A stretch of 27,542 nucleotides of DNA from a virus (IMGVR_UViG_2663762992_000005); one strand, 5' to 3'. Positions 6,014-27,542 are shown, counted from the first letter of the stretch. Translations and numbers: made by a program. The notes: generated by a model not told the origin, from the sequence alone.

Positions 6014-6327
6014 ACGGTATTCTCCTGCAACGGGAAAAGAAGAGACTGGACGGCATCCGTCTCCAGCCACTGACCAGTGAAACCATTCAGATACGCATCC
6101 CCGACCAGGTACTGCATGGCCAGCTGGATATCTTCATTCGCCACAAAACCGCGTACACCTTCCGGTAGCGCCTGCAGTTCGTCATCGCTTCTCACCAGTC
6201 TGCAGTAGTAGTCACGCTCAATACTCTTCTGCGCAGCCGCCATCATTTTACGGAGCATGTCGTCATGCTCCGTAAACTCCGGCTCCAGACGGAGCTGGGT
6301 TTTCACATCATCCAATTTCAGTATCAT
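6010..6327 (-). CDS. Head-tail connector protein, HK97 gp6-like
   Basis: 105 aa, ATG at 6325-6327; position and size after the capsid gene. Confidence 0.5.
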   Translation of the reverse strand: MILKLDDVKTQLRLEPEFTEHDDMLRKMMAAAQKSIERDYYCRLVRSDDELQALPEGVRGFVANEDIQLAMQYLVGDAYLNGFTGQWLETDAVQSLLFPLQENTV

Positions 6328-6682: not shown

Positions 6683-6700
6683 CGTTTTGCTCCTGAAAAG

Positions 6701-6720
6701 AAAAAACCCGCTGCTGCGGG
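6701..6720 (-). terminator. Intrinsic terminator downstream of the capsid gene
   Basis: Minus-strand hairpin CCCGC-AGCA-GCGGG followed by six T (forward A-run 6701-6706). Confidence 0.55.
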
Positions 6721-6780
6721 CCTGGGGGATTACGTGCTTTTTACGCTGTGCGACCGTGGTCGCACAGCGTGCAGGACCGG

Positions 6781-8064
6781 TTAAAACAGCACTTTTGTCC
6801 CGAGTACAAGACCTTCCGGATGACGGAAGCCGATATCGTGCTCAGTCACCACACGGATCAATGACTGGTTACGGGAGAACGCGGAAACCATATTGCCGTC
6901 CCCGTCCTGGTAGGCGGCTTGCTGAGAGAATGCCACTTTCATGCTGCCGTCTTCACCGATAACCACATCATTGAAGTCAGCGAAGTAAATTTCTGACTCT
7001 TTGCCGGTGTCACCGAGGTTTGCCGGGATAGCGCTGGTGCGCTGAACCGGATATCCCTTCAGCAGCCCCAGGGCCATTTCCGGGTAAACCTTGTTGCCGT
7101 TACCGTCGCGCAGCCCGAACAGTTTCATGTAGGTCCGGTTCGACATGCCCCAGCCGCAGCTGATCATGTTGCTGTTCCCGTCCATAGCCATCAGGATGAT
7201 GTCATCCAGGTATGCATCAATAGAATTCAGGGATAAATCTGCGCCAGCCCATTGTTTAAGGCGATTCCACTCCGTTGCACGCGCTTTCATACCGATCGGC
7301 GTATCACCGGTACCATCATCACGCAGAAAAGCTTTATCTTCGCGAACAGAAATCGCCGTCAGAATATCCTGCAATACCAGTTGTTCAACGTTAAAACCTG
7401 CGCGGCCAATGAGCTGATTTGAGATGGGCACCATCGCAATCATGGTTTTCGCAGTGAGTTTCACATCGTCAAAGCGCGCTTCTGATGTTTTCGCATCCTT
7501 ACCTTCCCCGGTATAGTTCGCCGTCGCTCCACCGGCCAGACGCGGCAGCGCCATATTGCCGTTCGGCAGCGGAATGGAGCGCGCGCCCAGCTTACGAACG
7601 ATGGTACGATCGCGCAGTAGCTCAATCACTTCGCTGTGAAGGTTTTGCGGAATAAGAACGCCGCCTGACGCAGCGGCAGTGCTGATGGCCATCGAGACAG
7701 ACTGGTCATTCAGTTCTTCCGCCGCAAATTTTGCAGCCTCCTGGATGTTACCCTCCGCTGCTGCAATCGACATTACCAGACGGGTCATGCCTGCCCCGGT
7801 ATATTGCTTTGGCTCCGCCTTAACGATGACACCAGGAGCCTGCTGTGTGCCTCTAACCGGTGCGGCAACAAGCGCCGCAGCACGTTCAGCCGCTTCCAGA
7901 CGCTCAATTTTGGCGCTGATATCCGTGAACTGCTGCTGCATGCTGGCAAATTCGGTTAACTGCTCCGCTGTCAGCGTTCCACCGGTAGTTTCAATCGTGG
8001 CCAGGGCCTGTACCTGCTCATTAATACCCGCACGCTGACGACGTAATTCTTCAATCTGTGACAT
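6781..8064 (-). CDS. Major capsid protein, HK97-fold with N-terminal delta (scaffolding) domain
   Basis: 427 aa; N-terminal coiled-coil followed by a capsid-like body; follows the protease and portal as in HK97. Confidence 0.8.
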   Translation of the reverse strand: MSQIEELRRQRAGINEQVQALATIETTGGTLTAEQLTEFASMQQQFTDISAKIERLEAAERAAALVAAPVRGTQQAPGVIVKAEPKQYTGAGMTRLVMSIAAAEGNIQEAAKFAAEELNDQSVSMAISTAAASGGVLIPQNLHSEVIELLRDRTIVRKLGARSIPLPNGNMALPRLAGGATANYTGEGKDAKTSEARFDDVKLTAKTMIAMVPISNQLIGRAGFNVEQLVLQDILTAISVREDKAFLRDDGTGDTPIGMKARATEWNRLKQWAGADLSLNSIDAYLDDIILMAMDGNSNMISCGWGMSNRTYMKLFGLRDGNGNKVYPEMALGLLKGYPVQRTSAIPANLGDTGKESEIYFADFNDVVIGEDGSMKVAFSQQAAYQDGDGNMVSAFSRNQSLIRVVTEHDIGFRHPEGLVLGTKVLF

Positions 8065-8140
8065 AGTTTTCTCTCTTTTCAGGTATAAAAAAAACAGCGC
8101 TAAGGCTGCTTTCTGGTGGTAATGACGCGTGAGCGCCGGG

Positions 8141-9061
8141 TTACATTCTGGTTTGCAGGTCCATCGCGGCTGCCTGCAACTTTATGGACGTGGTTTGTTG
8201 AGGTTGTTTGTACTTTGCCGCAATGGCATTAATCGCAGACTGAGGATCCGAAACTTCATCAGCAAGACCTGCTGAAATGGCATCAGCGCCGAAGTAGGTT
8301 CCCGCCTGGGTATCGATTACTGCCTGCTGTTTAAGGCCCCGGTACTCAGCCACTGAGGAGGTAAATGTCTCGTACATGTCGTCGAGCATTTTGTCGAACA
8401 TCGCCAGGGCCGATTCACTCAACGAAGCATGTGGCGTGCCATTGTTCTTGTTATCTCCCCGGTAGAGTGCAGTAAATTTCACTCCCATGCTCTCTTCCAG
8501 CTTTGACGTATCAAGGTGCTCCATGATCACCCCGATGGAGCCAACGCCACTGGTCTGACTGACGACAATCTTGCTGCAGGCCGACGCGATAAAATACGCG
8601 GCAGAGAGGGCATTAAAGTTCACAATAGCGGTGATCGGCTTCGTTTCACACGACTGATAAATATAATCAGCCAGCTCTTTGCACCCGGGCGCTAAACCGC
8701 CGCCTGAATTAATATCCAGAACGATTTCACTGATGGATGGGTCATTTAATGCCGAATGCAGCTGGCTGCGGATTCGCTCATAGCTCGTCAGTTCGGTACA
8801 CATCGCTGTAATTTGCCCGCGCCGGGGGACCAGAATCCCGTGAACGGGAATAACCGCGATACCACCGGCTGGCTGAACCTCTTCAGGGGATGGCGAATCA
8901 TCCGGATTTAGCGCCATCGTAATGACCGGATCCGTCACCGCTCCCTGAATACGGGGAAGCAATACCGCCTTCACGGCGTCCATCGTCTGTTGTGTTGCGT
9001 AATGAGGCACACCGAAGACCATTTCTGCGAGGTGCGGCAGGTTAAGTAATTTTGTTGTCAT
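8141..9061 (-). CDS. Prohead protease, S49 (SppA/ClpP-like) family
   Basis: Motifs DINSGGG and SIGV typical of S49 peptidases; ATG at 9059-9061 (internal to the track ORF). Confidence 0.75.
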   Translation of the reverse strand: MTTKLLNLPHLAEMVFGVPHYATQQTMDAVKAVLLPRIQGAVTDPVITMALNPDDSPSPEEVQPAGGIAVIPVHGILVPRRGQITAMCTELTSYERIRSQLHSALNDPSISEIVLDINSGGGLAPGCKELADYIYQSCETKPITAIVNFNALSAAYFIASACSKIVVSQTSGVGSIGVIMEHLDTSKLEESMGVKFTALYRGDNKNNGTPHASLSESALAMFDKMLDDMYETFTSSVAEYRGLKQQAVIDTQAGTYFGADAISAGLADEVSDPQSAINAIAAKYKQPQQTTSIKLQAAAMDLQTRM

Positions 9062-9097
9062 GAGATATACCAGGTCAGCCCGCATAGCGGGGAATAA

Positions 9098-10357
9098 TCA
9101 GGCTCTGGCCAGAATAGTTTCGATTTCTGCCAGTTGTTTAGCTGTTGGCGCGTTATTGCCAGGTAAGATTTGTTTACTGTCGACCATATTCAGAGGCGTC
9201 AGGTATTTGTCCCCTCCGGCGATGGGAGGAAGGTTCTCCATGCGGCGAATGTCATTAACCGATAACCAGCCCCACTGACGGCCCAGCGCATAAGATTCAT
9301 AGCGTGACTTCTGATCCCCGCGCAGCAGGCCGGATACATTGAATTCAATGTACAGACTACCGCGCTCGCTGGGTAAAAGCAGATCGCGCATTAATGCGCC
9401 TTCATGACGCTTCAGCCAGGCTAAAAGCGTATACATGACGAACTGCAGCCCCTGATGCTCAATGTTGTTATTTGTGGCTTTCGCCAGCATCTGCACCATA
9501 TGAGGCGGGATTTTATAGAGTCGGCAAACTTCCTCCACGCCCCACTGGCGGGACTGCAACAGCTGCGCTTTCTCATTATCCTGAGATAGCTGTTTGTAGC
9601 TCATCCCTTCCTGAAGCAATGCGACAGAAAAGGCATTACGCATACCGGAATAACGATCCGTCCATTTAGCAAGAAGTTGGTCAATCTTCTCCTGGTTCTT
9701 TATTGTCGGAGCCTCCTTTGGTCGCTCAATAACGCCGCTCATCGTTGTGCCACGGCGAAAAACCTGAGAAGCATGCTCTTCAACGGCCAGGTTCAGCCCA
9801 AGAACGTCTGCGTTCGTCTGGATCGGAGAGCTACCGATATAACCATCCAGCGAGAAAACCTTCACATGATGCATCATGCGCATTGGCAACGTTTCGCCAA
9901 TTTCGGGGAGTTCATAATAGGGCATCCCGTCAGGCCCTTTCAGGACGATGACTTTTTTGGGATTAACCGGGATTAATTCGCGGGGATACCCTTTCCCGTC
10001 CCTGTCGATGATCGAGTAGCAATTTCCCTCCAGCCCGAGCAGGCCCTGTTGCTGCTCAAAGTATTCAAACGAGGTGTCTTTTTTGTTGGGCTGGGAATGA
10101 ATCAGATCATAAACAGGGTGGTCAGTCGCCCGTTCACGGCCTCCGTTAGCGCCTCGCCTGTAAAGTTCACACGGCAACTGCGCCACCGATTCTGCCAGAA
10201 GCGTTACGCATGCCCGGACCGCCGATAACGCCAGTGCGGTTTCAGGAGTGATAATGATCCCCGCCTTGCTCTGGCTGGAACTCACCCCACCCAGCATCGC
10301 CTGCCAGAAACCACCACCAGACTGAGATTTACCCCGAAACATCTGGGGAATGAACAT
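9098..10357 (-). CDS. Portal protein
   Basis: 419 aa between the terminase and the protease; ATG at 10355-10357. Confidence 0.8.
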   Translation of the reverse strand: MFIPQMFRGKSQSGGGFWQAMLGGVSSSQSKAGIIITPETALALSAVRACVTLLAESVAQLPCELYRRGANGGRERATDHPVYDLIHSQPNKKDTSFEYFEQQQGLLGLEGNCYSIIDRDGKGYPRELIPVNPKKVIVLKGPDGMPYYELPEIGETLPMRMMHHVKVFSLDGYIGSSPIQTNADVLGLNLAVEEHASQVFRRGTTMSGVIERPKEAPTIKNQEKIDQLLAKWTDRYSGMRNAFSVALLQEGMSYKQLSQDNEKAQLLQSRQWGVEEVCRLYKIPPHMVQMLAKATNNNIEHQGLQFVMYTLLAWLKRHEGALMRDLLLPSERGSLYIEFNVSGLLRGDQKSRYESYALGRQWGWLSVNDIRRMENLPPIAGGDKYLTPLNMVDSKQILPGNNAPTAKQLAEIETILARA

Positions 10358-10536
10358 TATTCACCCCCTGATTTAATTACGCTGGCGGACATCGATTTCG
10401 CGATTAAAAATGACCACAGCAGGCAGATTGAACCGCCAGTAATAAGCCCGGCTGCAGGTGAAATAAGCCAGGCACCGGCAGACACTAACCCGGCTCCGGT
10501 GAGGCCGATAATAAAACTTAAAAGAGTGATCAACAT
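10357..10536 (-). CDS. Small hydrophobic protein (59 aa) between TerL and portal
   Basis: Hand translation MLITLLSFIIGLTGAGLVSAGAWLISPAAGLITGGSICLLWSFLIAKSMSASVIKSGGE. Its start overlaps the TerL stop (ATGTTGA) and its stop overlaps the portal start (TAATG). Not in the ORF track (below size cutoff). Confidence 0.45.
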   Translation of the reverse strand: MLITLLSFIIGLTGAGLVSAGAWLISPAAGLITGGSICLLWSFLIAKSMSASVIKSGGE

Positions 10537-12251
10537 GTAATATCTTCCTCATCATAAGCCGATTTACTGACAGTTCCGTTCAGCATGGCTCGCCCGACTC
10601 CCATCATTAGTCCTACCGCGCCATCTATTTTGTTTTGCTTTCTCTCCTTCCCTGGGCGAACAATGTCATCGCTTCCTGGTAAGTAACGCCCTATAACATT
10701 CTGGATGCACCAGTTCATGATAGGGTTACCGTCATGATGAAAGCGTCCTGATGCCAGCGCCGCCTCAATTTCACGCATTGGATCACTCATATGTGTAAAA
10801 TTTTGCCTGATCTCAACGGATTCCAGCCCCTCCTCTTCAAGCAGATGGCGCAATGATGTTGCCCCGTAAGGATCTATCGGGCACTGGACAATTTTAACCT
10901 GCTGGCGTAACTGAAGAATTGACTCAAAAATTAACCGATAATCCACCTCAGCCCCTTCAGTAGGTATCAATACCCCCTGTTTCACAAATGACTGGTAACG
11001 TTCAGAAATGGTTTTCAGCGTGGGATCTGGTGAATAAATTGTATCTTCAGGCGCCCAGAACAGCGGCCCCACACAGTAAAAATGGGTTATACCAGCAACC
11101 TCTCTCCTGAACACTGGCACTACGGCATTCAGGTCTACTTTCGAGGCCAGATCAATACCCAGCCAGCAATCCTCATCAACAAAATCAGATAATTTAAGGT
11201 TTTTATCCGCAGCAGCCATCCATCTTTGCAGGTCATAAAAAACCGTTTTTGCACTTACCCACCGGTTAAAGTGCTTGGTCAGAATTTTGTTAGTCTGGCT
11301 GGGATTGGATATTCCCAGTAACTGCTTCGCCCGAAGAAAATGCTCTTTAACAGAAACACCAAAGTTGGGATTTGCTTTAATCAGCGCTTCGGGCCTGGTC
11401 CAGTCATCATCGTCATCCAGACCGTATATAATGCCAAATATTGTCTCGTTTTCTTCTCCTGTCCGGTTACGGCGGAGAATTTCCACTATCTGCACACGCT
11501 TCTCGTAACAGGGCGAAGTAATGTCATAACCCGCTGTAGTAATAATCAGAGTAACAGGCTGCTCCCTTGCCCCCATCCCGGTAGTCATCGTTGTATAAAG
11601 TGCATCAGTCTGATGCTCGTGATATTCATCAATAATTGCACATGAAGGGGAATCGCCGTCACCAGGATCGCCGATGACTGGCGCAAAAACAGAGCCATCC
11701 GGACGGGTCATTTTCTTCGCCCAGGGTTTGACTGAGTATTTTTGTCGCAATGCCGGGAGTTTTTTTACCATTTGTAGAGCGGGAGAGAAGACTTTCCAGG
11801 CTTGTTTTTCAGTAGTGGCGCCACAGTACACTTCTGCACCATGTTCACCATCGGCGCAAAACATATAATTACCAACGGCAGCTGCAATTGCGGATTTCCC
11901 ATTTTTCCTGGGCACCTCAATATATATTTCAGAAAAACGCCGGAATCCGGACTTCTTATTAACCCATCCAAATGGCACACCAAGGGCAAACTTTTGCCAG
12001 GGCTCAAATTCTATTCGTAGTTTCTTCCTGGCCCATTCACCGGCCGTATGAGGCATCTTCTGAGCAAAGCGCAAAAATCGCTCGGCCTTGTTTTTATCAA
12101 ACCGGTAAGGCCAGGCAGGATCCTTCGCACGTTCCAAATCATCAAGGTGTCTTTGACAGGCAAGCACAGTTAACTGACAAGCAAGGATCTTCCCGCCAAC
12201 AACATCTCTTGCATACTGGTTCGCTGCATTGACGTTCGGATATGTAGCCAT
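10530..12251 (-). CDS. Terminase large subunit
   Basis: 573 aa; Walker-A-like region GAEVYCGATTEKQ and nuclease-like C-terminal half; start overlaps the TerS stop. Confidence 0.9.
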   Translation of the reverse strand: MATYPNVNAANQYARDVVGGKILACQLTVLACQRHLDDLERAKDPAWPYRFDKNKAERFLRFAQKMPHTAGEWARKKLRIEFEPWQKFALGVPFGWVNKKSGFRRFSEIYIEVPRKNGKSAIAAAVGNYMFCADGEHGAEVYCGATTEKQAWKVFSPALQMVKKLPALRQKYSVKPWAKKMTRPDGSVFAPVIGDPGDGDSPSCAIIDEYHEHQTDALYTTMTTGMGAREQPVTLIITTAGYDITSPCYEKRVQIVEILRRNRTGEENETIFGIIYGLDDDDDWTRPEALIKANPNFGVSVKEHFLRAKQLLGISNPSQTNKILTKHFNRWVSAKTVFYDLQRWMAAADKNLKLSDFVDEDCWLGIDLASKVDLNAVVPVFRREVAGITHFYCVGPLFWAPEDTIYSPDPTLKTISERYQSFVKQGVLIPTEGAEVDYRLIFESILQLRQQVKIVQCPIDPYGATSLRHLLEEEGLESVEIRQNFTHMSDPMREIEAALASGRFHHDGNPIMNWCIQNVIGRYLPGSDDIVRPGKERKQNKIDGAVGLMMGVGRAMLNGTVSKSAYDEEDITC

Positions 12252-12685
12252 CAGTCAAACTCATCAAATTCATTCCCGTCGTCGTCAGGATCATTTCCAC
12301 CGCCACGCATCCGAATTCGGCTGAGCGGATCCAACCCCAGAAGCGAACCAAGACGGGCTATCTGGGAAACTGAATCATTTCTGATGTTAACGGCGGGATG
12401 TTTCTTTAATCCCCCCATTTCACTTTCGGTCGTCAGGCTTGACGAGAGCAATTTTTCAGCTTCAAGCATTAAATGGAAGGCATTGCAGTAAGCCACAAGC
12501 AGGGGCGCATCCTCCAGTTCAAACACGCCTCTTTCGATCAGAATTTTACTTTGGGTTTTCCACAGTCTTATTGCAGCCTCCCCCATTAACTCTGCAGGAG
12601 GTGCAATTCGGGTTAATTTACTTTTTTGTCCGGCGGGTAAGATGGGTTTTCTCCCCCCTCCAGACGATCGAATTCCACCAGCCAT
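12251..12685 (-). CDS. Terminase small subunit (P27-like)
   Basis: 144 aa directly upstream of and translationally coupled to TerL; acidic C-terminal tail. Confidence 0.65.
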   Translation of the reverse strand: MAGGIRSSGGGRKPILPAGQKSKLTRIAPPAELMGEAAIRLWKTQSKILIERGVFELEDAPLLVAYCNAFHLMLEAEKLLSSSLTTESEMGGLKKHPAVNIRNDSVSQIARLGSLLGLDPLSRIRMRGGGNDPDDDGNEFDEFD

Positions 12686-13019
12686 AACTCCTCTTTAATA
12701 GGTGAAACCTACCGGAAAAAAGATCCTTATTTATGACGTGCAAAAATGTCCTTCAGGCGGCAGTCCTGGAAGGCGAAAGGGGTCAGGGATTTGATCCCCC
12801 CTTCCCCTGGCCTGTGTGGGCATCAATCAAGATGGAAGTCATCATTCAGGCTGCGCCGACGACCGCAGCTCTCATTATGTGGACAGGCACTAGAGTTATG
12901 CCCTGACTGCCCACAATAGCTGCAGTGCAGGTTGGCGCGGCGCGATGAACCACCCCATTATTTTGGGCAGTTAGCTATTGTATAGAGCCGTGAACCAAAA
13001 TATGTGCAATGGGTCTAAC

Positions 13020-17729: not shown

Positions 17730-18392
17730 ATGGACTCGAATACCTTAACCATTATAGGAACATTTATTGTTGCCATAATAAGCGGATTACTGGCTTATTC
17801 ATCTTCTCTTTCTGCAAAGGAAAAAGAGGTCAAATTATCCGCATATGAAAAACTCGGACTTGATATACATGCCAATCTTGAAAAGCTTTACAATAATACA
17901 GAATGGCTTTTACTGATTTTTCAACACAAGAATACATTAAACCGCGGAGATTTAATTATTGCCAACAAACAAGTTTCTCTAGACGTTGACAAACTCAGAG
18001 AACTTAGCATAAGAATGAGATTTTTTGATAATGCTTGCTATAAGAAATATGAATCTGTAGTTCAATCGCATGGTAATTTAATACCACAAATACTTGGTTA
18101 TACTCGGCATCCACATGAAACCCCAAGAGATGCTTCAGAACTTTACTCTCGAGAAGAAACACAGGAATTTATAAATAAATTATCCATACTAAAAGATGAA
18201 ATAAATAGCACTAAGATCCATATAACGAACAAAATAGCCAAGGAATATAACAAAGCCCTATCATCTTCAAGGAAAGTTACAGTGCTAGCTTTCATAGTAT
18301 TATTTACTGCATTTATAGCATTTATAATTTTCCCTTTGAAAGAGCAGTCACCTTCGCCCGCAAAAGAAAAAGTCATGCTGCTCTCTTCATAA
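17730..18392 (+). CDS. Hypothetical membrane protein with N- and C-terminal TM helices
   Basis: 220 aa from the ATG at 17730 (the track ORF starts at an upstream TTG); AT-rich; transcribed opposite to the late operon. Confidence 0.5.
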   Translation: MDSNTLTIIGTFIVAIISGLLAYSSSLSAKEKEVKLSAYEKLGLDIHANLEKLYNNTEWLLLIFQHKNTLNRGDLIIANKQVSLDVDKLRELSIRMRFFDNACYKKYESVVQSHGNLIPQILGYTRHPHETPRDASELYSREETQEFINKLSILKDEINSTKIHITNKIAKEYNKALSSSRKVTVLAFIVLFTAFIAFIIFPLKEQSPSPAKEKVMLLSS

Positions 18393-18611
18393 AAACTCGC
18401 ATTTTAGGCTGATTTTTATGCACCTGTGCAGGTAAGAACGATTACTAATTTAGCCTCACCTCCGATAGTTCGTATGGCGCTGTGGTTGATGGAGGGGGGG
18501 GCTGGCTTATGCGCTATTATGAAAATGTGAAGATAAGTATAATTTGCGAAACCTGAAATTATAAAAGACTTCCATTTGGAAGCCTTTAAAATAGCAGCAA
18601 GCGACTCATTG

Positions 18612-19463
18612 TTATTTTGTAGGTTTAGGACCTAACGTGAATTTTGATTTAGTTCCTTTTCGCAACCGTCTAACATCAGGAAAAAGTTCTACTAATCTAT
18701 CTGTACACTTAGTCAAGGATTCAGTACAAATAATCATCCCCATAATCATATAGCCAAAGTCATAGTTGTTAAAACAACCAGTTCCTCTTCCGTTTGGCTC
18801 CATTTTATAATATGACATAGGTAGTATATGCGTATAATGAGATAAAAAATCGAACATTATTTTAAATGACTTTGGATCTTTTCCCAGTTTAACCAATAAC
18901 TCATCTCGATTTGGAATCATAAGCGCTTTTCCAGTCAAGCAACGTTTTCTGGTTCCTTGTTCAAGGGATAAAAAAACAGGGTTGTTATTAAGTCTCTCAG
19001 TTATTATATCTTTTTGTTCATGATAAAAATCCAATGCTTTCGTATTATCACTAGATGTAAATAACTCAATTCTCTTTACACAATCATTCATGTGCATGAC
19101 ATTCAACTTTGCTGACCACTCCTCAGTTGAATCTGGATTCTCAGATAAATACATAAACAATAACTCAGCTTCCAGAATCGCTCTTACATGAGGTGCAATC
19201 GCCGAAAAATCCCAAAAGTCATAATCCCGCTTAGCCCATCTTGATTTTGGTACGTTGGAAATCATTATTGAAGCATGAATGCAGATTCGTGAAAAAATGT
19301 ATGTAGACCACCCTTTAAAAGCCTCAGCCATTCGCACACCAACCCCCTGACTTACAGCATTCGCTTCACATACAGCTTTATCAAACTCCCTTAAGTAGTG
19401 ATGGAAGTCATCCATCGAAAAATCGTTTCGTTCAAGTGGATTTTCGGGATTATCTATTTTCAT
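18612..19463 (-). CDS. Hypothetical protein (orphan, AT-rich)
   Basis: 283-aa ORF between the tR'-like terminator and the holin; followed by its own hairpin plus T-run near 18565-18584. Confidence 0.55.
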   Translation of the reverse strand: MKIDNPENPLERNDFSMDDFHHYLREFDKAVCEANAVSQGVGVRMAEAFKGWSTYIFSRICIHASIMISNVPKSRWAKRDYDFWDFSAIAPHVRAILEAELLFMYLSENPDSTEEWSAKLNVMHMNDCVKRIELFTSSDNTKALDFYHEQKDIITERLNNNPVFLSLEQGTRKRCLTGKALMIPNRDELLVKLGKDPKSFKIMFDFLSHYTHILPMSYYKMEPNGRGTGCFNNYDFGYMIMGMIICTESLTKCTDRLVELFPDVRRLRKGTKSKFTLGPKPTK

Positions 19464-19510
19464 ACTTCACCTATTTAAAACAATTGGTTTAAATCGGTGA
19501 ATTATAACGC

Positions 19511-19534
19511 AAAAACCCGCTCATTGGCGGGTTT
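19511..19534 (-). terminator. Intrinsic terminator downstream of the Q-like gene (tR'-like)
   Basis: Minus-strand hairpin CCCGC-CAATGA-GCGGG followed by TTTTT, about 95 nt after the Q-like stop. Confidence 0.5.
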
Positions 19535-19626
19535 ATAAAACTTTGGCAACATATCAAATACGCTTCAAATATGGCTTATTTTGTTGCATTTTGCAAGCGC
19601 GTTTGAAGGAGATAGTGAAATTTACT

Positions 19627-20337
19627 TCACATTTCTGCCACTTTGAGGGCTTCTTCTTCCTCATAGTATTCAAGAGCCATTGCCAACGCAGATTCATCAA
19701 GCTGGGTAAAAGCGGCCTTTAACCCAGCCCAGTGCCCTGAATAGACACGCAACCATGTCGAACGATCAACGCTAACCATGCGGGCCAACGCTGCACCAGC
19801 ATAGTCTTTATAGGTTTCATTATTTCTGGTTGCGGCAATTTCCTGCCCTGCCAGCCATACCAGGCCAATCAGTTTCTTTACTACGCGCTCCTGAAGGGAA
19901 TTATCACCCAGGCATTTCTGATAAGTTTTCCAGACGTATTCACACATCATCACTTGGTGCTTATAGCTAAGGTCAAAACCGTAGCAGTACCGCAACCAGG
20001 CCTGCTGGTATCCACTAAGCGCGGACACTGCCCTACGCCACGGCGCGGACTCAAATTCCGCATCTTTTATCGGCGGCATTGGCCTGCAGCGGCTGCGTGT
20101 TTCCAGTACATACAATGGCGCGGAAAGCGAGTTAACAAAGCGAGGCCCCTTCTCTCCTTCGAGTTCGACGAGATGAATTCCACGGCGCGGGGTGGCATTT
20201 TTGTCTGCTGGTGGGTGTTCACTGAAAGCCTCAAGCTGCCCTTTTGTTCCCCCAGAGAGGTCAGGTAGCGCGCGGCGCAATTCTATTCTTACAAAATTCA
20301 GGTCTTGTTGATTCATGCTTCTTTGCGCTCCATACAC
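19627..20337 (-). CDS. Putative late-gene antiterminator (Q-like)
   Basis: Call is by position: immediately upstream of a terminator and the lysis genes, downstream of nin-region-like genes. A likelier ATG start is at 20314-20316. Confidence 0.45.
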   Translation of the reverse strand: MYGAQRSMNQQDLNFVRIELRRALPDLSGGTKGQLEAFSEHPPADKNATPRRGIHLVELEGEKGPRFVNSLSAPLYVLETRSRCRPMPPIKDAEFESAPWRRAVSALSGYQQAWLRYCYGFDLSYKHQVMMCEYVWKTYQKCLGDNSLQERVVKKLIGLVWLAGQEIAATRNNETYKDYAGAALARMVSVDRSTWLRVYSGHWAGLKAAFTQLDESALAMALEYYEEEEALKVAEM

Positions 20338-21366
20338 TTAAGCTTTCGCAATTACGCCGATCGCCAGCGCCCGATCCATAAAACGCAGTAGCAGCTCAAG
20401 CTGCGTACCATGCTTCTGCTCGAATGCCGATACATCGGCGTGTAACTCGTCGTGGCACTCTCTGCACAGAGGGATCACGAAGAGGTCATGGGCTTTTGTT
20501 GCTGTACCACCCATACCGTGCCCTACGATATGGTGCGGATCATCTGCTGGCCGTCGGCAACACTCACAGGGTTGTGTTTTTACCCAGCGGGTGTAAGTCT
20601 CATTTATCCAGCGGCGTCGCTTTGGCCTGAGCATGAAAGATTCCGGAGACTCCGGATCAACAGAGAGCGTGAGGATCTTCTTCGCCTTCTCCTGCACGAG
20701 GCTGGTTGCAGTAGCGGAAGGCACAATGTCGCTTTCCCTCATGACCGAGCGGATCTTCTCATCCGGAAGGCGTAGCCCCTTGTGCGCAACGCTTTCCGGA
20801 ATAACATCAGCCAGGTCGTTTCTGACCATCCACCAGCACAGTTCCGGAAGCGTCAGGATATGCGACTCGGGAAAACCAGAATCACGCCGAATGACTTCCA
20901 GAATCCAGGATACCAGGTTTCCTGCCGCTATACCTGCAAGCCGTTCGGTATGCTGCCCCGACAAAGTGTGATCGCAATGCCAGCACAGGCGAATACTTCC
21001 TGGTGGGTGCCGCATTGTTGTGAAGTTCTTGTCGTGCCACGATGAATGTGGCCACTGGCATTCAAACCGAGAACTCAGCCACTGCTCAAGGGAAGGAAGT
21101 CCACCGGCACGCTGAATAACCCGCTCATTCCCGAAGACCTGCCGCATTACCGGATCATCAGCCAGCGGCTGAATGGCTGCCGGAACAGCCCCGGTACTGA
21201 ATGACGCCATTTCTTCTGGTTCAGGCTCGAGCAGAACGCGACCACGCATGAAGAGGTGCATCAGTTTAGCACCGGGACGGAACAGCACAATCCCCATACG
21301 ATGGGCGATCTCGGGGGTAAGCAGAGCTCTCACGCGACCTGCCCCCTGGCAATGTGTTCTGCCCAC
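20338..21366 (-). CDS. DUF968-like protein with C-terminal HNH-like zinc finger
   Basis: C-terminal CECC, HH and CRECH motifs; adjacent to the Q-like gene, as I recall for ydfU next to quuQ in E. coli Qin. Start codon uncertain. Confidence 0.5.
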   Translation of the reverse strand: MGRTHCQGAGRVRALLTPEIAHRMGIVLFRPGAKLMHLFMRGRVLLEPEPEEMASFSTGAVPAAIQPLADDPVMRQVFGNERVIQRAGGLPSLEQWLSSRFECQWPHSSWHDKNFTTMRHPPGSIRLCWHCDHTLSGQHTERLAGIAAGNLVSWILEVIRRDSGFPESHILTLPELCWWMVRNDLADVIPESVAHKGLRLPDEKIRSVMRESDIVPSATATSLVQEKAKKILTLSVDPESPESFMLRPKRRRWINETYTRWVKTQPCECCRRPADDPHHIVGHGMGGTATKAHDLFVIPLCRECHDELHADVSAFEQKHGTQLELLLRFMDRALAIGVIAKA

Positions 21367-22013
21367 AGTCCACCAATCCAGCGCACGCCTTTCGCAGTGA
21401 AACGTGCCTGGCTGAATGCATGATTTGAGGTTACGGATGTGCCGGTTTTCACTTCAAAACGGCCCGCATCAATATGCTGATACCGTGGGGTCATCGTTCC
21501 ACCAAGGCGATACATGATGTCGTTCTCAAGGAGGAATAACCGCAGATCTGGCTCTTTTGCCTTAAGCAGTTTTGCCACCTGGCGGAATGACATTGACCCA
21601 CTGGCTGTACAGTACCGATCAACAAACGCTACCTTCGGCGCCGCGGCAGCCAGTTCGTTAGTCAACTGCTGTTTTTGTTCTGCAAGGTCAGCGGCAAGAC
21701 GTAGGGCTTCAGAGAATGATTGAGGAATCGTCTGCTGCTGTGCCTGCTCAAGCTCCTGCCAGCGATCAACCAGACGCGCGGTAAACTCCGGCGACAGCTG
21801 CGCGACAACGATATAACTGTCCCGCTTCCCTATCAGATAAACCGATACCGACTGATTGAGGTGATTTTTAACTTCCCCCATTGGGGGGAGTTCAATAACA
21901 CCGCGCTCTGCCAGGCGTTCAATGGACCGTTTAACATGGTCATGTCGTGATTCCACCAGCTCAGCAATATCGCTGCTGGACATGGTTAATGCTGTTGTTG
22001 CTAATTGGCTCAT
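21330..22013 (-). CDS. Rha-family phage regulatory protein (antirepressor-like)
   Basis: N-terminus MSQLATTALTMSSSDIAELVESRHDHVKRSIERL matches the Rha pattern; ATG at 22011-22013 with GGAG 7 nt upstream. Confidence 0.6.
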   Translation of the reverse strand: MSQLATTALTMSSSDIAELVESRHDHVKRSIERLAERGVIELPPMGEVKNHLNQSVSVYLIGKRDSYIVVAQLSPEFTARLVDRWQELEQAQQQTIPQSFSEALRLAADLAEQKQQLTNELAAAAPKVAFVDRYCTASGSMSFRQVAKLLKAKEPDLRLFLLENDIMYRLGGTMTPRYQHIDAGRFEVKTGTSVTSNHAFSQARFTAKGVRWIGGLWAEHIARGQVA

Positions 22014-22026
22014 ACTTTTCTCCATA

Positions 22027-22413
22027 TCAGGCGGCCGCACCCGCCGGTTCATATCTGCTGATCGTTATCTCTACCCGACCTTTCGGCACTACGGGTCCCC
22101 ATTCCACCAGCATGCGCTTAATCTGGCTGTCATCTTCCCAGACACCCGCATGCGTCAGCGCGTCAAACAGGGCTTTGTTGTAATTATCGATATCCCGGCG
22201 GCGCGCATCCGGCGGGTACAGAGTGATTTCTACCGCAGCCAGTTCAGTCGATGGCTTCGGGAGACGTCGTAATTGCTCAATGATCGCCACGCAGGCAGCG
22301 CTCTGGTATTTACGGCCTTCAGCGCTAATGAGGTGACGACCAGCCAGCGCCCCCTTGTTAGGAGCGCGCCAGTAAGTGTTCACGCTGGGTGGAAATGGGA
22401 GTATGAGCCTCAT
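22027..22413 (-). CDS. rusA: RusA-family Holliday junction resolvase
   Basis: 128 aa; motifs PPSVNTYW, SAEG and DARRRDIDNYNKALFDAL align with my recollection of E. coli RusA. Confidence 0.75.
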   Translation of the reverse strand: MRLILPFPPSVNTYWRAPNKGALAGRHLISAEGRKYQSAACVAIIEQLRRLPKPSTELAAVEITLYPPDARRRDIDNYNKALFDALTHAGVWEDDSQIKRMLVEWGPVVPKGRVEITISRYEPAGAAA

Positions 22414-22527
22414 TAAAAGCCTCCGTCATAATTCCTGAAACATACCTCAACTTTCCCGCTATAGTGACGAACACGTTGAACAACATCCGAAATAGGCGCT
22501 ATACCGGCAGGGCGATAAAAGACTGTT

Positions 22528-23850
22528 TCACGCATGAGTTACCCCCTGCATGCTGTCGACAAGACCACGCGCAATTGTGATTATTTCGCTGGTGGACATT
22601 CGTTCCAGCCAGAGTTGATTGATGTTGGCTTTCAGCTTGTTCTGCTGTGATTCATCCAGCATGTCAGCACCATCCACCTGGTCGAATACAATTCCAACCT
22701 CCAGTGGCCATATACGGGACTCGGGAAGCTGATCGGCTACTGGTTTAGCTTTCTCACGGATGTGCATGCGGATCTGGCGAATATTGGACCAACTGGAAAC
22801 ATCCAGGCTTCCCATAGCTGCAATGAAATCAGTACTGTTCATGCCATATTCACCAGATGCTTCAAGGGCAACAGTACGAATACGTTCCGACATATCCAGG
22901 CGCGCAGCAGCGTCATCGAATTCAATCGACAACAGCCACTCATCCACACCGAGCAAAATACTCTCACGAATAAGCAGCTTCGCTTTGTCGATCGTTAATG
23001 GTGATACCTGAGTGAATTCCGGTGCTTCGACAGAATCCGCCGCCCAGGTATGCCCAAACTTCGATTCACTGAATGTGTATTCTTCTTTATCGCCGAACGC
23101 AGCTCTAACGCATGCCCACGCCTCAACACCGCTGATATCAAAAATATCTTTCTGGGTAAGTGGCAACTCTGCTTCTGGCTTGTCAGCTACAGGTGGTGTG
23201 GCGGTTGCTGGCTGAGGTTTGCTGGTGGCAAACTGTGCCAAAGCCATAAACGCGCGCCCTTTTGTTTCCAGTTCTGTGCGGTTGATATAGCTGAATCGCT
23301 CGCCACGCCATGACTTATCGAATACAGCTATGGCTCCGGAAAAAAACGCGCTGGTGGGCTTCTGTTTTTCGTCAGCAGGTACAAACCACACTGGCAGATC
23401 GAAACCAATGCGCCCGCGAATGAATACAATGTGATCGGCATCTTCCGGCCACCACGTTTCACTCGGCGCGGCTTTTATCAGGAATACATAGCGACCGCCC
23501 TTCTCGCGCTGGGTTGCTGCGTACTTCATGATGTGCGTCATACCAGTGATCGCCTGTTTCTCGTGGTACTGCGAGCGGCTATATGGAGGGTTGGCAAAAG
23601 CCGCGCCACCCAGTTCTGCCAGACGTTCAGACCAGTCCTGCGTCAGTGCGTTATCTTCGGCGGTGTACCATGCCGGGCATTTCGCGTTGTCGTCGTCAGC
23701 AAACAAGTCCAGAACTAATGGACCAAATAGCGCGTTGATACCCCAGAAAAGCAGATCCGGTGTCCGCCACTGATCGCCAACTTCTTTCAATTCGTGAGCT
23801 GGTTTTGAACGCAGTTCGGCCAGCGCGCGGCAGTATTTGTTTTCAATCAT
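22528..23850 (-). CDS. DNA N6-adenine methyltransferase fused to a C-terminal domain of unknown function
   Basis: The N-terminal third contains the NPPY catalytic motif (FANPPYS) and upstream conserved blocks like phage Dam-type methyltransferases; the C-terminal ~250 aa are unassigned. Start overlaps the replication-gene stop (ATGA). Confidence 0.6.
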   Translation of the reverse strand: MIENKYCRALAELRSKPAHELKEVGDQWRTPDLLFWGINALFGPLVLDLFADDDNAKCPAWYTAEDNALTQDWSERLAELGGAAFANPPYSRSQYHEKQAITGMTHIMKYAATQREKGGRYVFLIKAAPSETWWPEDADHIVFIRGRIGFDLPVWFVPADEKQKPTSAFFSGAIAVFDKSWRGERFSYINRTELETKGRAFMALAQFATSKPQPATATPPVADKPEAELPLTQKDIFDISGVEAWACVRAAFGDKEEYTFSESKFGHTWAADSVEAPEFTQVSPLTIDKAKLLIRESILLGVDEWLLSIEFDDAAARLDMSERIRTVALEASGEYGMNSTDFIAAMGSLDVSSWSNIRQIRMHIREKAKPVADQLPESRIWPLEVGIVFDQVDGADMLDESQQNKLKANINQLWLERMSTSEIITIARGLVDSMQGVTHA

Positions 23851-24779
23851 CCTCTGAATCCCTCTGGAATTTTGGTATCTACCGGGCCGAACTTCATCGG
23901 GTCATGTTTCTTCTCGCCCCAGCTTTCACGAGGGGGACGGCCTTTCTTATCCCAGCGGAGCCCGCTTTGCAGATAACCCTCAAATTTTTTCGGCCCAAAC
24001 AGAGTTTCAGGCCGCATGTACTGATACTGCGCGTCATTGCCGTTCCAGTGTTCATGCTTGAGGTCAATCACCAGCGTTAAGTCGCTGACGGTATAACCTT
24101 CACGCAGACGGGCACGTATGTTTTCCAGAGAGGTTTTAGATTTCTGGTACCGGGAGCCGCTTACCTGGTTCAAATGAGTTAAAACCAGGATGGCGTTATC
24201 AGTGATCAACACCTCAGGGTCTGGTTGCGGCGCAACCGGACAAGAGGGGTTAATGATCTGTTTGTGGTGATCTGAGTAATGATCTGTATAGAGAATAGGT
24301 TCCGCGACTTCGCGGTTAGGGTTCCGCGATTCTGCGTTTTCGGTTCCGTGATTCTGCGGAATAGGTTCCGCGACTTCGCGTTTCCCGTTCCGCGATTCTG
24401 CGGAATCCAGCGTTGCCGGGAATAAAACATTGATTAGCGCTTCGCCATTGATACGGTAATGCGTCTTTTTCGTGCCGTTTACCTGTCGCTGCGCCTTTTC
24501 AACAACCCCTGGTAGCCAGCGGGTACAAATCTTGTTTACCAGGCGCTGCACCTGATCTTCACTCACGCCGCGAATCTCTGCCGCAAGCTCGCTGTGCTCT
24601 TTATAAAACCAGCCATCATTCAGATCTGATTTACCAGACCAGAACACGAGCTGGTTTAGCACAGCGCCCAAAGCATGCGCCTGCTGATCGCCGGAGAAAT
24701 AATCGAGGTACGGGACCGGAATGGTGATGCTATTCCTTTGCCCCGACAGCGATTGAACGATTTCAAATATCTGGCTCAT
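23847..24779 (-). CDS. Replication initiation protein (O-like) with conserved phage C-terminal domain
   Basis: C-terminal segment LNQVSGSRYQKSKTSLENIRARLREGY...YMRPETLFGPKKFEGYLQ matches the conserved phage C-terminus found in replication proteins; the gene contains an iteron array. Confidence 0.65.
   Translation of the reverse strand: MSQIFEIVQSLSGQRNSITIPVPYLDYFSGDQQAHALGAVLNQLVFWSGKSDLNDGWFYKEHSELAAEIRGVSEDQVQRLVNKICTRWLPGVVEKAQRQVNGTKKTHYRINGEALINVLFPATLDSAESRNGKREVAEPIPQNHGTENAESRNPNREVAEPILYTDHYSDHHKQIINPSCPVAPQPDPEVLITDNAILVLTHLNQVSGSRYQKSKTSLENIRARLREGYTVSDLTLVIDLKHEHWNGNDAQYQYMRPETLFGPKKFEGYLQSGLRWDKKGRPPRESWGEKKHDPMKFGPVDTKIPEGFRG
24299..24403. repeat. Iteron array: five copies of a ~17-bp unit GTTCCGCGAYTYYGCGG at exact 22-bp spacing (putative origin of replication)
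   Basis: Copies begin at 24299, 24321, 24343, 24365 and 24387; each has partial dyad symmetry (TTCCGC...GCGGAA); located inside the O-like gene as in lambda ori. Confidence 0.6.
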
Positions 24780-24948
24780 GATCGTCCGTTATCTCCCTGA
24801 ACTTTCGCCTGAAATGCTCAAGTGGGCTGAAGCATTCGTGCGGGTAGCCATCACGCAGATAGATAACGCGCTGTGTTTCAGGTTCCCAGCGGATAACACG
24901 GACTGGCACTCCACGGTAGTCTTTGAACCTTCGGTTAAGTTCGCGCAC
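24763..24948 (-). CDS. Hypothetical small protein (61 aa)
   Basis: GTG start; 3' end overlaps the replication-gene start by 17 nt. Ribosome-binding site is poor. Confidence 0.3.
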   Translation of the reverse strand: MRELNRRFKDYRGVPVRVIRWEPETQRVIYLRDGYPHECFSPLEHFRRKFREITDDHEPDI

Positions 24949-25120
24949 AGGCGTTTTGCCCTCCGGTTGTAGACCCCCACAATTGAAACCGCCCTACTGT
25001 GGTTACACGGAACCCAGCGGTTTGATAATCTGCGTTCATACCGAAACAACGGAGTACCCGAAACAGGGATCATCCTGAGTTGCGGTAGACGGTTAAAAGC
25101 CGTTAAACTATTCATGCGGA

Positions 25121-25669
25121 TTATTTCTCCATACTCGAAGAGTTGTTCGCCAAGGCGCCCGGAGCTGCACACTCGCGGGCGTCACTCTTTTCTGGAAGGC
25201 AGTAAACACGGGCAATCAAATTCAGAAAGGTCATCAGAGTTACCCTGAACTGATATGCAATGTCGTTAAGGCTCTGCCACTCACCCTTATCAACAACCCC
25301 ATCGTCGATATACCAACGGTAAGCGTTGACCAGTTCTCCTAGACGCCCCACCAGCTCGGCCAGCTTTAAGCCAATTTCTTCGTTTTCGTCATCTGGCACC
25401 GCACCCGGAACGTGTATCCCGTTATCTGTTTGACGAGAAAACGCATCAGCTATGTAGCTGACACCGGCGGCTTTCTGTAACACCATCGCCCATCCCATAG
25501 GGAAGATCTGATCCCCGTCGACGCGAAGGCGGTTAAACAATGCGTTCTCTGTCACCCCCAACCATTCCGCCGCTTCGGCGTAGCCACCAGGCAGATCGGT
25601 AATCGTTTTTTTAATCGCTACCACCAGCCAGGCTGGCTGACGTTCGACTTTCCATTGCGGTTCGTTCAT
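25121..25669 (-). CDS. Putative early regulatory protein (CII/YdaT-like by position)
   Basis: 182 aa from the ATG at 25667-25669 (GGAG upstream); second gene downstream of cro. Family not verified. Confidence 0.4.
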   Translation of the reverse strand: MNEPQWKVERQPAWLVVAIKKTITDLPGGYAEAAEWLGVTENALFNRLRVDGDQIFPMGWAMVLQKAAGVSYIADAFSRQTDNGIHVPGAVPDDENEEIGLKLAELVGRLGELVNAYRWYIDDGVVDKGEWQSLNDIAYQFRVTLMTFLNLIARVYCLPEKSDARECAAPGALANNSSSMEK

Positions 25670-25754
25670 TACTGCAACTCCATTATTGGCGCCGAACTTC
25701 CTGACGGTGATAGCCTGCAAGCTCTCACACCAACAGAACCGAAGGAGGTTCGAC

Positions 25755-25991
25755 ATGTCTGTAAATTCACTGCCTTACGGCAAGTCTCCCGAAGAAGCCG
25801 CTCACGATCTGGCCATGAATCTTGTCTTGTCTGGTCACTTCAAAACATTCCAGAAGTCGCCAGAAGAGGTTTTTCAGTTGATCACCAATGCAGAACTGGT
25901 CTTCAGTGAGCTTTACCGAAACAAACTGAAGGAAATAGAGTCCGCCAGATCAAAAGAAACCGAAGAGCAATATCAACGTACGCAGTGCTAG
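25755..25991 (+). CDS. Hypothetical small protein (78 aa), antisense to the early operon
   Basis: ATG at 25755 preceded by AGGAGG at 5-6 nt spacing; exactly fills a gap that is non-coding on the minus strand. Confidence 0.45.
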   Translation: MSVNSLPYGKSPEEAAHDLAMNLVLSGHFKTFQKSPEEVFQLITNAELVFSELYRNKLKEIESARSKETEEQYQRTQC

Positions 25992-26233
25992 CCATGAACA
26001 AACGAAAGATAGAACGTTGAATAACCACGGGCGGCGCTTTCAACTGCCGCCTGTATTTCCTCCGCGGATCTCCCTCTAAGGATCATCTCGTTTATCAGCT
26101 CGCCAATAAGGGGAAGGACAATTGGCTGGAATGACATGTAAACCCGCATCTTTCCTTCGGAAATGGTTATTTGTCCTTCATCGCTTTTAGCGGTCACGCT
26201 GTTTGTATCTTTTGTCTCGCTGCTGTTACCCAC
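25988..26233 (-). CDS. Hypothetical protein (81 aa)
   Basis: GTG start at 26231-26233 preceded by GAGGAG at 6-nt spacing; first gene after cro. Confidence 0.5.
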   Translation of the reverse strand: MGNSSETKDTNSVTAKSDEGQITISEGKMRVYMSFQPIVLPLIGELINEMILRGRSAEEIQAAVESAARGYSTFYLSFVHG

Positions 26234-26262
26234 GGTTAACTCCTCTCTTTTGTGGTTGTTGA

Positions 26263-26505
26263 TTAAGCTGCTGAATCTGCAGACTTTTGGAAAACATCAG
26301 GACGCAGTCTTTCTTTTGGGATGCCAGTAACGCTCTCAATGTACTGAGATTGCTTTATTGGCGACCTTTTTTCTCTGTTGAGCCAGTTCCATACCTGTTG
26401 TTGTTTAACTTCCTTCCCGGAACTTGCAGTTAGTTTCCGGGCTAACTCAGACTGGCCACCAGCAGTTTCAATTGCCTCTGAAAGGGCTAACTGCTCAGGT
26501 GTCAT
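26263..26505 (-). CDS. cro: Cro-like / YdaS-family HTH regulator
   Basis: 80 aa from the ATG at 26503-26505 (AGGAG upstream); sequence GGQSELARKL...VWNWL...IP resembles Cro/YdaS HTH proteins; divergent from the repressor gene. Confidence 0.65.
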   Translation of the reverse strand: MTPEQLALSEAIETAGGQSELARKLTASSGKEVKQQQVWNWLNREKRSPIKQSQYIESVTGIPKERLRPDVFQKSADSAA

Positions 26506-26526
26506 AGTTTTTCTCCTGTGGTTTGA

Positions 26527-26645
26527 GGTAAAAGTTGTTGGCACCATTGATCATACAACCTAAACAACTTTTACCACAACTTTTAGGTGTTGGAAAGCTA
26601 AAACATAAAGTTGTAATCTCTCCTAATACAGGGGGTAAAGTTGTG
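26527..26645. promoter_or_regulatory. Operator/promoter region between cro and cI with five copies of the half-site TAAAGTTGT / ACAACTTTA
   Basis: Copies at 26529-26538 (+), 26564-26573 (-), 26577-26586 (-), 26606-26614 (+) and 26636-26644 (+); the first two form a 13-bp inverted repeat GGTAAAAGTTGTT...AACAACTTTTACC. Confidence 0.5.
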
Positions 26646-27329
26646 AATACACTTGCGGAACGACTAAAAATAGCTAGAGAGAAGAAAGGCATGAGCCAGG
26701 CTCAGTTAGCCGAGCTAATAGGCCTGTCTCAACAATCTGTGGCGAAAATTGAAAATGGAGATACGCTTCAACCTAGAAAGATCAAAGATATTGCGAAAGC
26801 TTTAGATGTATCCCAAAAATGGCTACAGCTCGGAATTGAGGAGAATGGCTCTATTTCTGATTTTGTAGTTGAGGAACTTGAAGAAGCAAAACTTGATCCT
26901 GAAGTATTTGCCAACATACCCGTTCTCGATGTTGAGTTCTCTGCTGGCAATGGATGTGAAGCCGAAATTGTGGAATCAGTTGTTGATTCGTTCCCTCTTC
27001 GTCGTTTCGATCTTAGAAAAGCTGGAGTCAGTCCTGCTAACGCAAGAATCGTAAAGATTTGGGGCAACAGCCTTTTGCCAGTATTGAATAATGGGGATCA
27101 TGTCGCGATTGACATGTCACAGTCGAAACCTATCAGAGATGGTGATTTATACGCTGTTAGAGATGGAGTTTTACTTCGAGTTAAAGTTCTTATCAATCAA
27201 CCAGATGGTGGTTTGATACTGCGGAGTTTCAACAAAGAAGAGTACCCGGATGAAGTACTCAACTTTGATGAAAGAAGAGCCAGAATACACGTTATTGGTC
27301 GCGTGTTCTGGTCTTCACGTTCATGGTAG
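26643..27329 (+). CDS. cI: CI-like repressor (N-terminal HTH, C-terminal S24 LexA-like peptidase domain)
   Basis: [26 protein letters not shown] preceded by helix 1; C-terminal domain with GNSLLP (Ser) and a downstream Lys as in LexA/CI autocleavage domains. Probable GTG start at 26643 with GGGGG 7 nt upstream. Confidence 0.8.
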
Positions 27330-27542
27330 AGCGTGAAAAAGCATTTCTTCTGAAATGATTTTTAACTTAGCCCCTTCATCATCTCTATATGAGACTGCTT
27401 TTTCTATTTTCGACGGAGACAGGATCCAGCCCAGCGCACCGAACACCGCCGTCAGCCCCAGCACAATGCCGATACCCGGAAGAATGTATTTGCTGACACC
27501 AGCACCGGTCAGGCTGTTGGTTAAGGTATAGAGAACCGCGTC
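27321..27542 (-). CDS. Partial ORF, C-terminal end of a membrane protein convergent with cI (start lies beyond window end)
   Basis: Minus-strand frame open from the window end to TGA at 27321-27323; hand translation ends ...[55 protein letters not shown], including a TM-like segment. Confidence 0.35.

Follow-up and report, generated by a model that had tools for sequence, protein, structure and literature searches.

A short open reading frame that runs against the early operon of a lambdoid prophage raises the question of whether it is a gene in its own right and, if so, from what signals it would be expressed and in which phase of the phage life cycle its product might act. The frame lies in the window, by which we mean the whole stretch of 27,542 nucleotides of viral DNA (IMGVR_UViG_2663762992_000005) that was analysed and whose right end is a lambdoid immunity/early region. 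The features considered below are collected in Table 1, in which related loci are designated by numbers preceded by L. The early gene at whose start the leader of the frame begins matched phrog_101 (‘CII-like transcriptional activator’, E = 7.5e-43) and, weakly and below the cut-off, PF06892 (E = 0.0027), and its homologues carry the RefSeq name ‘YmfL family putative regulatory protein’; beyond it lie a DUF4222-like ORF, a Phg_2220_C replication gene and Dam. The second of these, a replication-initiator gene at 23847..24779 on the minus strand, contains 4.8 copies of a 22-nt unit (24298-24406), which are probably origin iterons. The head and terminase genes (5381-12861) share approximately 77-79% identity with Klebsiella phages of the phiKO2 / ST846-OXA48phi9.1 type and the early region has its matches among prophages of E. 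coli and Salmonella, so that the genome is mosaic.

Direct reading of the sequence bears out the 78-codon ORF of the preliminary description, together with its ATG at 25755 and the AGGAGG upstream. The ORF had also been said to fill the only gap that is non-coding on the minus strand. The 318 nt from 25670 to 25987 are indeed without a minus-strand gene and are occupied by the ORF and its leader, with an 81-aa early gene on one side and, on the other, the YmfL/CII-like gene, whose start at ATG 25669 was also the choice of gene callers on identical contigs; this gap is the largest but not the sole one, since a second stretch of 172 nt (24949-25120), bounded by the ymfL-like gene and the DUF4222-like ORF, is also without a minus-strand ORF of plausible size. 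The tetranucleotide CTAG (25988-25991) holds the overlapping stop codons of the 78-aa and 81-aa genes, which thus meet tail-to-tail.

Table 1. Features of the locus in the window and alternative ORFs found behind the same block at related loci
Feature	Location	Strand	Remarks
YmfL/CII-like early gene, 182 aa	25121..25669	-	start ATG 25669, own GGAG; start abuts the leader block
Conserved promoter/leader block, 69 nt	25686..25754	+	from alignment with relatives; promoter inferred
Candidate -35 and -10 elements	25686-25691 and 25709-25714	+	TTGGCG, 17-nt spacer, GATAGC
Candidate extended -10 element	25708-25716	+	TGnTAGCCT (TGaTAGCCT in the window)
5' arm of stem, CGAACTTCC	25693..25701	+	complementary to the Shine-Dalgarno region; possible anti-SD element
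3' arm of stem, GGAGGTTCG	25744..25752	+	same stem; overlaps the Shine-Dalgarno sequence
Shine-Dalgarno sequence AAGGAGG	25742..25748	+	6-nt spacer TTCGAC, then ATG
78-codon ORF	25755..25991	+	ATG 25755-25757, TAG 25989-25991; read directly from the sequence
Convergent 81-aa early gene	25988..26233	-	GTG start, GAGGAG ribosome-binding site
GC-rich hairpin GGCGGCG-N8-TGCCGCC	26030..26051		within the 81-aa gene, 39 nt past the stop of the 78-aa gene
cro-like gene (YdaS_toxin/Cro HTH)	26263..26547	-	probable start ATG 26505 (80 aa)
cI-like repressor gene (HTH_3 + Peptidase_S24)	26535..27329	+	start codon uncertain
Alternative cargo, 153 aa	L027-29, L051/55		behind the block
Alternative cargo, 158 aa, two kinds	L021/22 and L023		behind the block
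Alternative cargo, 152 aa	L053, L056		behind the block
Alternative cargo, ORF of at least 95 aa	L057		behind the block
Alternative cargo, unannotated 92-aa ORF	L060 (OM284015.1, ‘Elizabethkingia phage EKP1’), 2501-2845	+	behind the block

Coding evidence and protein family

When the gap was shuffled 5000 times by mononucleotides, 57 of the shuffles (approximately 1%) held an ATG-initiated ORF of at least 78 codons closed inside it; the length of the ORF is by itself only mildly unusual, and it is conservation that decides. The preliminary description had named conservation of the frame in related prophages as a check, and by this check the homologues, of 65-81 aa, keep the frame uninterrupted and show purifying selection on it. 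Between the window and the related locus L001, 37 of 51.3 synonymous sites have changed against 21 of 182.7 non-synonymous sites (pS 0.72, pN 0.11), and in codon alignments dN/dS was 0.05-0.6 for all pairs with estimable dS, with synonymous sites near saturation and the protein conserved. These patterns of codon substitution fit the plus frame. In L001 an in-frame TGA stands just upstream of the ATG and thereby fixes the start codon. An in-frame upstream extension of the ORF (from TTG 25686, 101 aa) was considered and ruled out, on the grounds of this in-frame stop and because the homologues all begin with MS or MT.

That the ORF has arisen by chance or mis-annotation, and that there is no gene here, might be argued from its occurrence in about one in a hundred shuffles of the gap and from the want of any family annotation. 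Against this stand a conserved length and N-terminus, dN/dS values well under 1 across approximately 25 clusters and five genera, a strong Shine-Dalgarno sequence at ideal spacing and a confident structural model; the codon substitution evidence refutes such a reading, which we regard as hardly credible. The gene has been called by automatic gene callers on many contigs, and the exact 78-aa protein is already public (NCBI, UniRef) as a ‘hypothetical protein’ of E. coli and Salmonella, from 27 contigs. Judged from these alignments, the ORF is a genuine protein-coding gene, previously predicted and uncharacterised.

Homologues that are likewise 78 aa long, with 71-77% identity, were recovered from Salmonella and a metagenome by a word-indexed search, and a second profile search extended the family to approximately 25 clusters of 65-81 aa with 33-77% identity. 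When 1.84 billion representatives were searched exhaustively with a profile, seven clusters came back, all of them small proteins resembling the 78-aa family. The hosts are Salmonella, E. coli, Enterobacter asburiae, Enterobacter ludwigii, Trabulsiella and Klebsiella-type contigs, and the family is confined to enterobacterial prophages. Neither the 78-aa nor the 81-aa family was found by tblastn with three queries in 50,697 deposited phage genomes, and neither the 78-aa gene nor the block upstream of it by megablast and blastn in complete E. coli genomes.

The protein is acidic (9.0 kDa, pI 5.3), and its AlphaFold2 model, built on an alignment of 22 sequences (pLDDT 84.8), is a helical hairpin in which a short helix (residues 12-25) is joined through a conserved SGHF loop to a long one (residues 36-76). 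The conserved core comprises residues 1-58, with the pattern LPxGK(T/S)PEEAAH(D/E)L..LV.SGHF...PEE(V/I)F....AE..F..LY, and the tail is variable. Sequence searches of Pfam, PHROG, NCBIfam, PADLOC and PDB revealed no relative of the protein or of its distant relatives, and fold searches with the model returned generic helical hairpins only, none of them informative. The best-known exclusion proteins are membrane-bound; the 78-aa protein differs from them in having no hydrophobic or membrane segment (maximum 19-residue hydropathy 0.36).

Genomic contexts of the 78-aa gene

The preliminary description had the ORF co-oriented with cI and on the far side of cro, which holds for the window, and called this position unusual. 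The gene does lie antisense and beyond cro; its position is, however, less unusual than that wording suggests, because the family is antisense to the flanking phage genes at every related locus examined and because other prophages carry other antisense ORFs in the same slot, behind the same leader. Nine distinct contexts were recovered, and in all nine the 78-aa-family gene is antisense to the phage genes on both sides. Six of them are early-right operons, in which the gene lies just past cro, following either cro with an 81-aa gene or YdaS and YdaT with a gene of the 81-aa family. Its convergent neighbour is cro itself in Enterobacter asburiae and, in a Trabulsiella-like contig, an Ant-like gene that stands behind cro; in Klebsiella-type phages and E. 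ludwigii the gene adjoins the terminase genes.

The arrangement in the window may be compared with that in E. coli prophages that are 94% identical to it from Dam through ymfL. In these relatives cro stands 23 nt from ymfL, neither small gene is present, and homology to the window ends at base 25654, at the start of ymfL. By this comparison, the 81-aa and 78-aa genes together make up an insertion of approximately 570 bp where the relatives have cro and then directly ymfL. The 78-aa gene is thus present in some close relatives and absent from others, and across the nine contexts its orientation does not follow that of the surrounding operon. A patchily distributed insertion with a direction of its own is the signature of a moron, and by its sequence and distribution we take the 78-aa gene to be an ordinary ‘moron’-type accessory gene of a lambdoid prophage, belonging to an uncharacterised family. 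Genes that lie antisense to prophage lytic genes and have their own promoter are typical accessory loci of Salmonella prophages (Owen et al., PMC7067206). L001 (6745-7212, plus strand) and L056 (1296-1763) carry a further gene of moron-like character, which shares its strand with cI and the 78-aa gene; it encodes a 155-aa protein (phrog_6315, with a very weak match to SLATT_4, E = 0.096) and lies antisense in the early operon, between cro and an 82-aa gene.

The 81-aa gene has a family of its own, which comprises 27 clusters and is likewise uncharacterised. Its product was modelled by AlphaFold2 as a beta-hairpin with two helices (pLDDT 76), and neither Pfam, PHROG, NCBIfam, PADLOC and PDB nor a fold comparison gave any match. 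In a one-genome-per-species collection there was no match for the 81-aa family or for the block. The GC-rich hairpin within this gene has a predicted energy of -14.8 kcal/mol (z -2.2) with a weak U tract, and could possibly form the 3' end of a plus-strand transcript. As a dedicated terminator of the 78-aa gene it was rejected for lack of specificity, being found in all genes of the 81-aa family, with or without a 78-aa neighbour.

A conserved block with alternative cargo

Upstream of the ORF, the window and the loci L039/L041 share 90-98% identity, both across the 69-nt block (25686-25754) and over 25660-25750, falling within the coding sequence from 70% to 36%, and to 45-60% on the ymfL side. 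The Shine-Dalgarno sequence is invariant, or nearly so, across all relatives that carry the block. The same block is joined, at the ATG, to at least six other ORFs without evident similarity to the 78-aa family (Table 1). Four of the alternative cargo proteins were searched with PADLOC and gave no match, and Pfam and PHROG scans of the cargo returned nothing significant. Since apparently unrelated ORFs are joined to it by their ATG in different prophages, the block is a leader that is both conserved and portable, and the antisense slot, itself conserved, has several alternative cargoes, of which the 78-aa gene is one. Where the block fronts the 92-aa ORF, the EKP1 record annotates in its place ‘hypothetical protein 21’, which overlaps it on the other strand. 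With DUF4222 and cro/cI, the early region of EKP1 resembles that of enterobacterial lambdoid phages, which does not sit well with the host given in the record.

Within the block, the candidate -10 element reads GATAAT in L001 and L057 and TATATC in L006 and EKP1, and in the candidate extended -10 element the sole base that varies among the TG-containing variants falls on the ‘n’. A scan for the sigma-70 consensus gave no promoter at threshold in the window and three homologous loci, and no convincing intrinsic terminator was found downstream of the 78-aa gene. As regards signals of its own, then, the gene has a conserved block with -35/-10-like elements that lack a consensus match, and a downstream hairpin with a weak U tract; since neither a consensus promoter nor a convincing terminator came to light, we can only infer that it forms an autonomous transcription unit. 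Searched against Rfam, the interval 25000-26800 matched no RNA family.

The 5' part of the block may in addition fold back on the ribosome-binding site. The stem CGAACTTCC/GGAGGTTCG was predicted unaided by RNAalifold, and in 13 diverse blocks 88% of its cells are paired. Both partners have changed in two of the pairs (from AU to GC in L001/L005; the outer pair, CG or UA, in EKP1 and L006), a covariation that amounts to about two independent events in closely related sequences. The wobble pairs are G-U on the plus strand only; the minus-strand version of the stem is predicted to fold about as well. The full block has a folding energy of -24.1 kcal/mol (z -2.4), against -7.1 kcal/mol (z -0.2) for a leader starting near 25721. 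Taken together, these predictions are suggestive, though not strongly so, of a stem that sequesters the Shine-Dalgarno sequence. A local hairpin at the same site (GAACC/GGTTC) was not favoured, because it is not conserved in L001, whereas the long-range stem is kept there. Fold-back inhibition of translation was reportedly described for the IS10 transposase by Davis, Simons and Kleckner in 1985. The block resembles that case in having upstream sequence complementary to the ribosome-binding site, such that only transcripts entering from outside would have the Shine-Dalgarno sequence sequestered; it differs in being the leader of a prophage gene, not part of an insertion sequence, and the support from covariation is thin.

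Other known systems set the locus in relief. With the lambdoid morons (bor and lom of lambda, the morons of HK97/HK022, and STMMW_20121 of ST64B, the last treated in PMC7067206) the 78-aa gene has in common that it is a patchy extra gene inserted in an operon in the opposed direction, with translation signals on its own strand. It differs from them in that no consensus promoter or terminator was detected, in that its product matches no family or function, and in the reuse of the conserved leader before unrelated ORFs. We know of no description of such reuse for classical morons. Like the accessory hotspots of P2/P4-like elements, and like the cI-N region in which lambdoid phages carry rexAB or bstA, the slot is a fixed site with conserved bounds and unrelated alternative cargo. 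The cI-N region is a site of accessory genes (PMC7067206); the present slot differs in lying on the other side of cro, within the PR operon, and in having cargo that shares one leader, and, in distinction from accessory hotspots, the cargo tested here was without match to known defence models. The unusual part of the locus is the reusable leader with the swap of cargo at the ATG, the single gene being otherwise ordinary.

A further-reaching interpretation, which we put forward tentatively and rate as possible but less likely than not, is that the block acts as a portable expression socket, comprising promoter, leader and anti-SD guard and placed antisense in the early operon of enterobacterial lambdoid prophages, into which unrelated cargo would be swapped at the start codon by recombination. 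The 78-aa hairpin protein would then be one interchangeable lysogen-phase effector, for example of anti-phage defence or exclusion, which convergence with PR would switch off on induction.

Expression and possible role in the prophage

A half-site AAAGTTGT/ACAACTTT occurs in five copies between 26531 and 26644, in the cI-cro intergenic region, where approximately one would be expected by chance, and nowhere else in the window; these copies are likely the OR operators. No cI/Cro operator half-site was found near the 78-aa gene, all five copies of AAAGTTGT lying in the interval just given, and no LexA box (CTGT-N8-ACAG, with up to one mismatch) anywhere in 18000-27542, so that there is no sign of direct repression of the gene in the lysogen. 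Small antirepressors of the Gifsy type have a LexA box in their promoter and a partner repressor without a self-cleavage domain; here there is no LexA box, and the cI of the window has a Peptidase_S24 domain. The preliminary description had suggested that the gene could encode a lysogeny-phase regulator or a small exclusion protein. Orientation, patchy presence and the lack of a nearby cI/Cro operator or LexA box would all fit an accessory gene expressed in the lysogen, but with no promoter at consensus and no informative homologue or fold match either function is conjecture.

We consider it probable, if by no means assured, that the locus is a lysogen-phase moron package, that is, a conserved antisense 78-aa gene behind a portable leader, expressed while PR is repressed and encoding an accessory factor that binds protein. 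The block would supply the gene with a weak or factor-dependent promoter of its own and with its ribosome-binding site, and in the lysogen, with PR repressed, transcription would proceed from the block in the direction of cro and cI, and once the prophage is induced it would suffer interference from convergent PR transcription. The plus transcript would overlap the 3' end of the mRNA of the 81-aa gene. Pairing of the 5' part of the block with the Shine-Dalgarno sequence, combined with a promoter inside the block, would mean that only read-through transcripts are silenced. The acidic, soluble helical hairpin would presumably act by binding another protein, and its most likely role would be that of a lysogen-phase accessory factor in exclusion, defence or host modulation; a role in defence or exclusion in particular is a guess from context.

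The moron package has to be weighed against the possibility that the block is an activator-dependent promoter of the pRE/pE kind, firing toward cI and antisense through the 81-aa gene and cro, with the 78-aa ORF as first cistron, made along with CI during the lysis-lysogeny decision and not constitutively in lysogens. The geometry of the window is that of lambda pRE and 186 pE, the latter being convergent with pR and activated by CII (PMC7708051): a non-consensus region at the start of a CII-like gene (17 nt from that of ymfL), convergent with PR and directed toward cI. Strong conservation without a sigma-70 consensus would also fit an activator-dependent promoter, and cI lies downstream on the same strand in most contexts. 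No direct repeats were obvious around the -35 region, where they were sought by eye only. The block differs from pRE and pE in having a strong Shine-Dalgarno sequence and variable cargo directly after it, and in occurring also with an unrelated type of post-cro gene and also away from cI. Thus, it is found near-identical both with a CP76/YmfL-type CII-like gene and where none is called and a YdaT-type gene follows cro, and its sharing by YmfL-type and YdaT-type prophages makes one activator for both unlikely. At the terminase-proximal loci of Klebsiella-type phages and E. ludwigii the pRE-like geometry found in the window is lacking, there being no cI downstream. Moreover, an exchange of unrelated cargo at the ATG is what one would sooner expect of a moron slot than of a transcript with a core regulatory function. 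On balance, we hold an establishment transcript to be unlikely, although it deserves to be kept in mind.

A different relation to the neighbouring genes would obtain if the 78-aa and 81-aa proteins were partners, an antagonist and its target or a pair resembling toxin and antidote, such that the 78-aa protein made in the lysogen would neutralise 81-aa protein arising from leakage or from an incoming phage. The two genes stand tail-to-tail in six of the nine contexts, with stops overlapping by 4-14 nt or 17 nt apart, and are found together elsewhere, upstream of terS/terL in Klebsiella-type phages, while the E. coli relatives have neither; both proteins are small, acidic and helical, and their profiles resemble each other weakly (P 3e-4 to 6e-4). 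Yet 81-aa genes that are 93-98% identical (in the window and L039/L041) lie beside 78-aa-family alleles only 45% identical, 81-aa genes also stand beside unrelated cargo of 153 or 158 aa, and the 78-aa family occurs without any 81-aa gene. There is thus neither co-variation nor exclusive pairing, and the obligatory co-occurrence and co-variation of a toxin-antitoxin or defence pair were not seen, each family being found without the other. Furthermore, the resemblance of the two proteins is not significant (hhalign probability only 28-40%), the search of 1.84 billion proteins returned nothing but small proteins like the 78-aa family, and neither protein matched PADLOC, a toxin-antitoxin family, Pfam or NCBIfam, so we judge a partnership distinctly improbable. 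A descent of the convergent genes as inverted paralogues was also considered and is unproven (hhalign 40%, falling to 28% with deeper alignments; no BLASTP match; no 81-aa protein recovered by the profile search). Still less probable, in our view very much so, is that the locus serves mainly as an antisense RNA, by OOP-like pairing with the 3' end of an mRNA after cro or by transcriptional interference with PR, with the protein secondary. Lambda OOP, a non-coding RNA of 77 nt, lies opposite the 3' end of cII. The function of OOP, and an analogue of it at the corresponding position of BTP1, are covered in PMC7067206. The 78-aa gene is like OOP in its position relative to cro and the next gene and in its direction back to cro and cI, beginning beyond the gene after cro and running back into its 3' end, and a stable hairpin lies 39 nt past its stop, inside that gene. 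As for complementarity to the 3' end of the early gene, the stops of the 78-aa and 81-aa genes overlap by 4 nt, and the candidate hairpin for an RNA 3' end lies at 26030-26051. In place of a short non-coding transcript, however, there is here a 237-nt ORF under protein selection, and the gene overlapped encodes an unrelated 81-aa protein, not cII. Strong purifying selection on the amino acids with saturated synonymous sites shows that the protein itself is selected, whereas the alleles show no conservation of the RNA as such (56% nt identity), the hairpin is present whatever the neighbour, and there is no Rfam match; even so, RNA and protein might both serve a function.

If the 78-aa gene is expressed from the prophage, its family of uncharacterised small proteins would join the accessory genes that prophages of E. 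coli, Salmonella, Klebsiella and Enterobacter express in the lysogen, among which many anti-phage and host-modulating functions are already known. A search with the block, moreover, locates the slot and its alternative cargo elsewhere, including ORFs that have been missed or placed on the wrong strand in annotation, as in EKP1.
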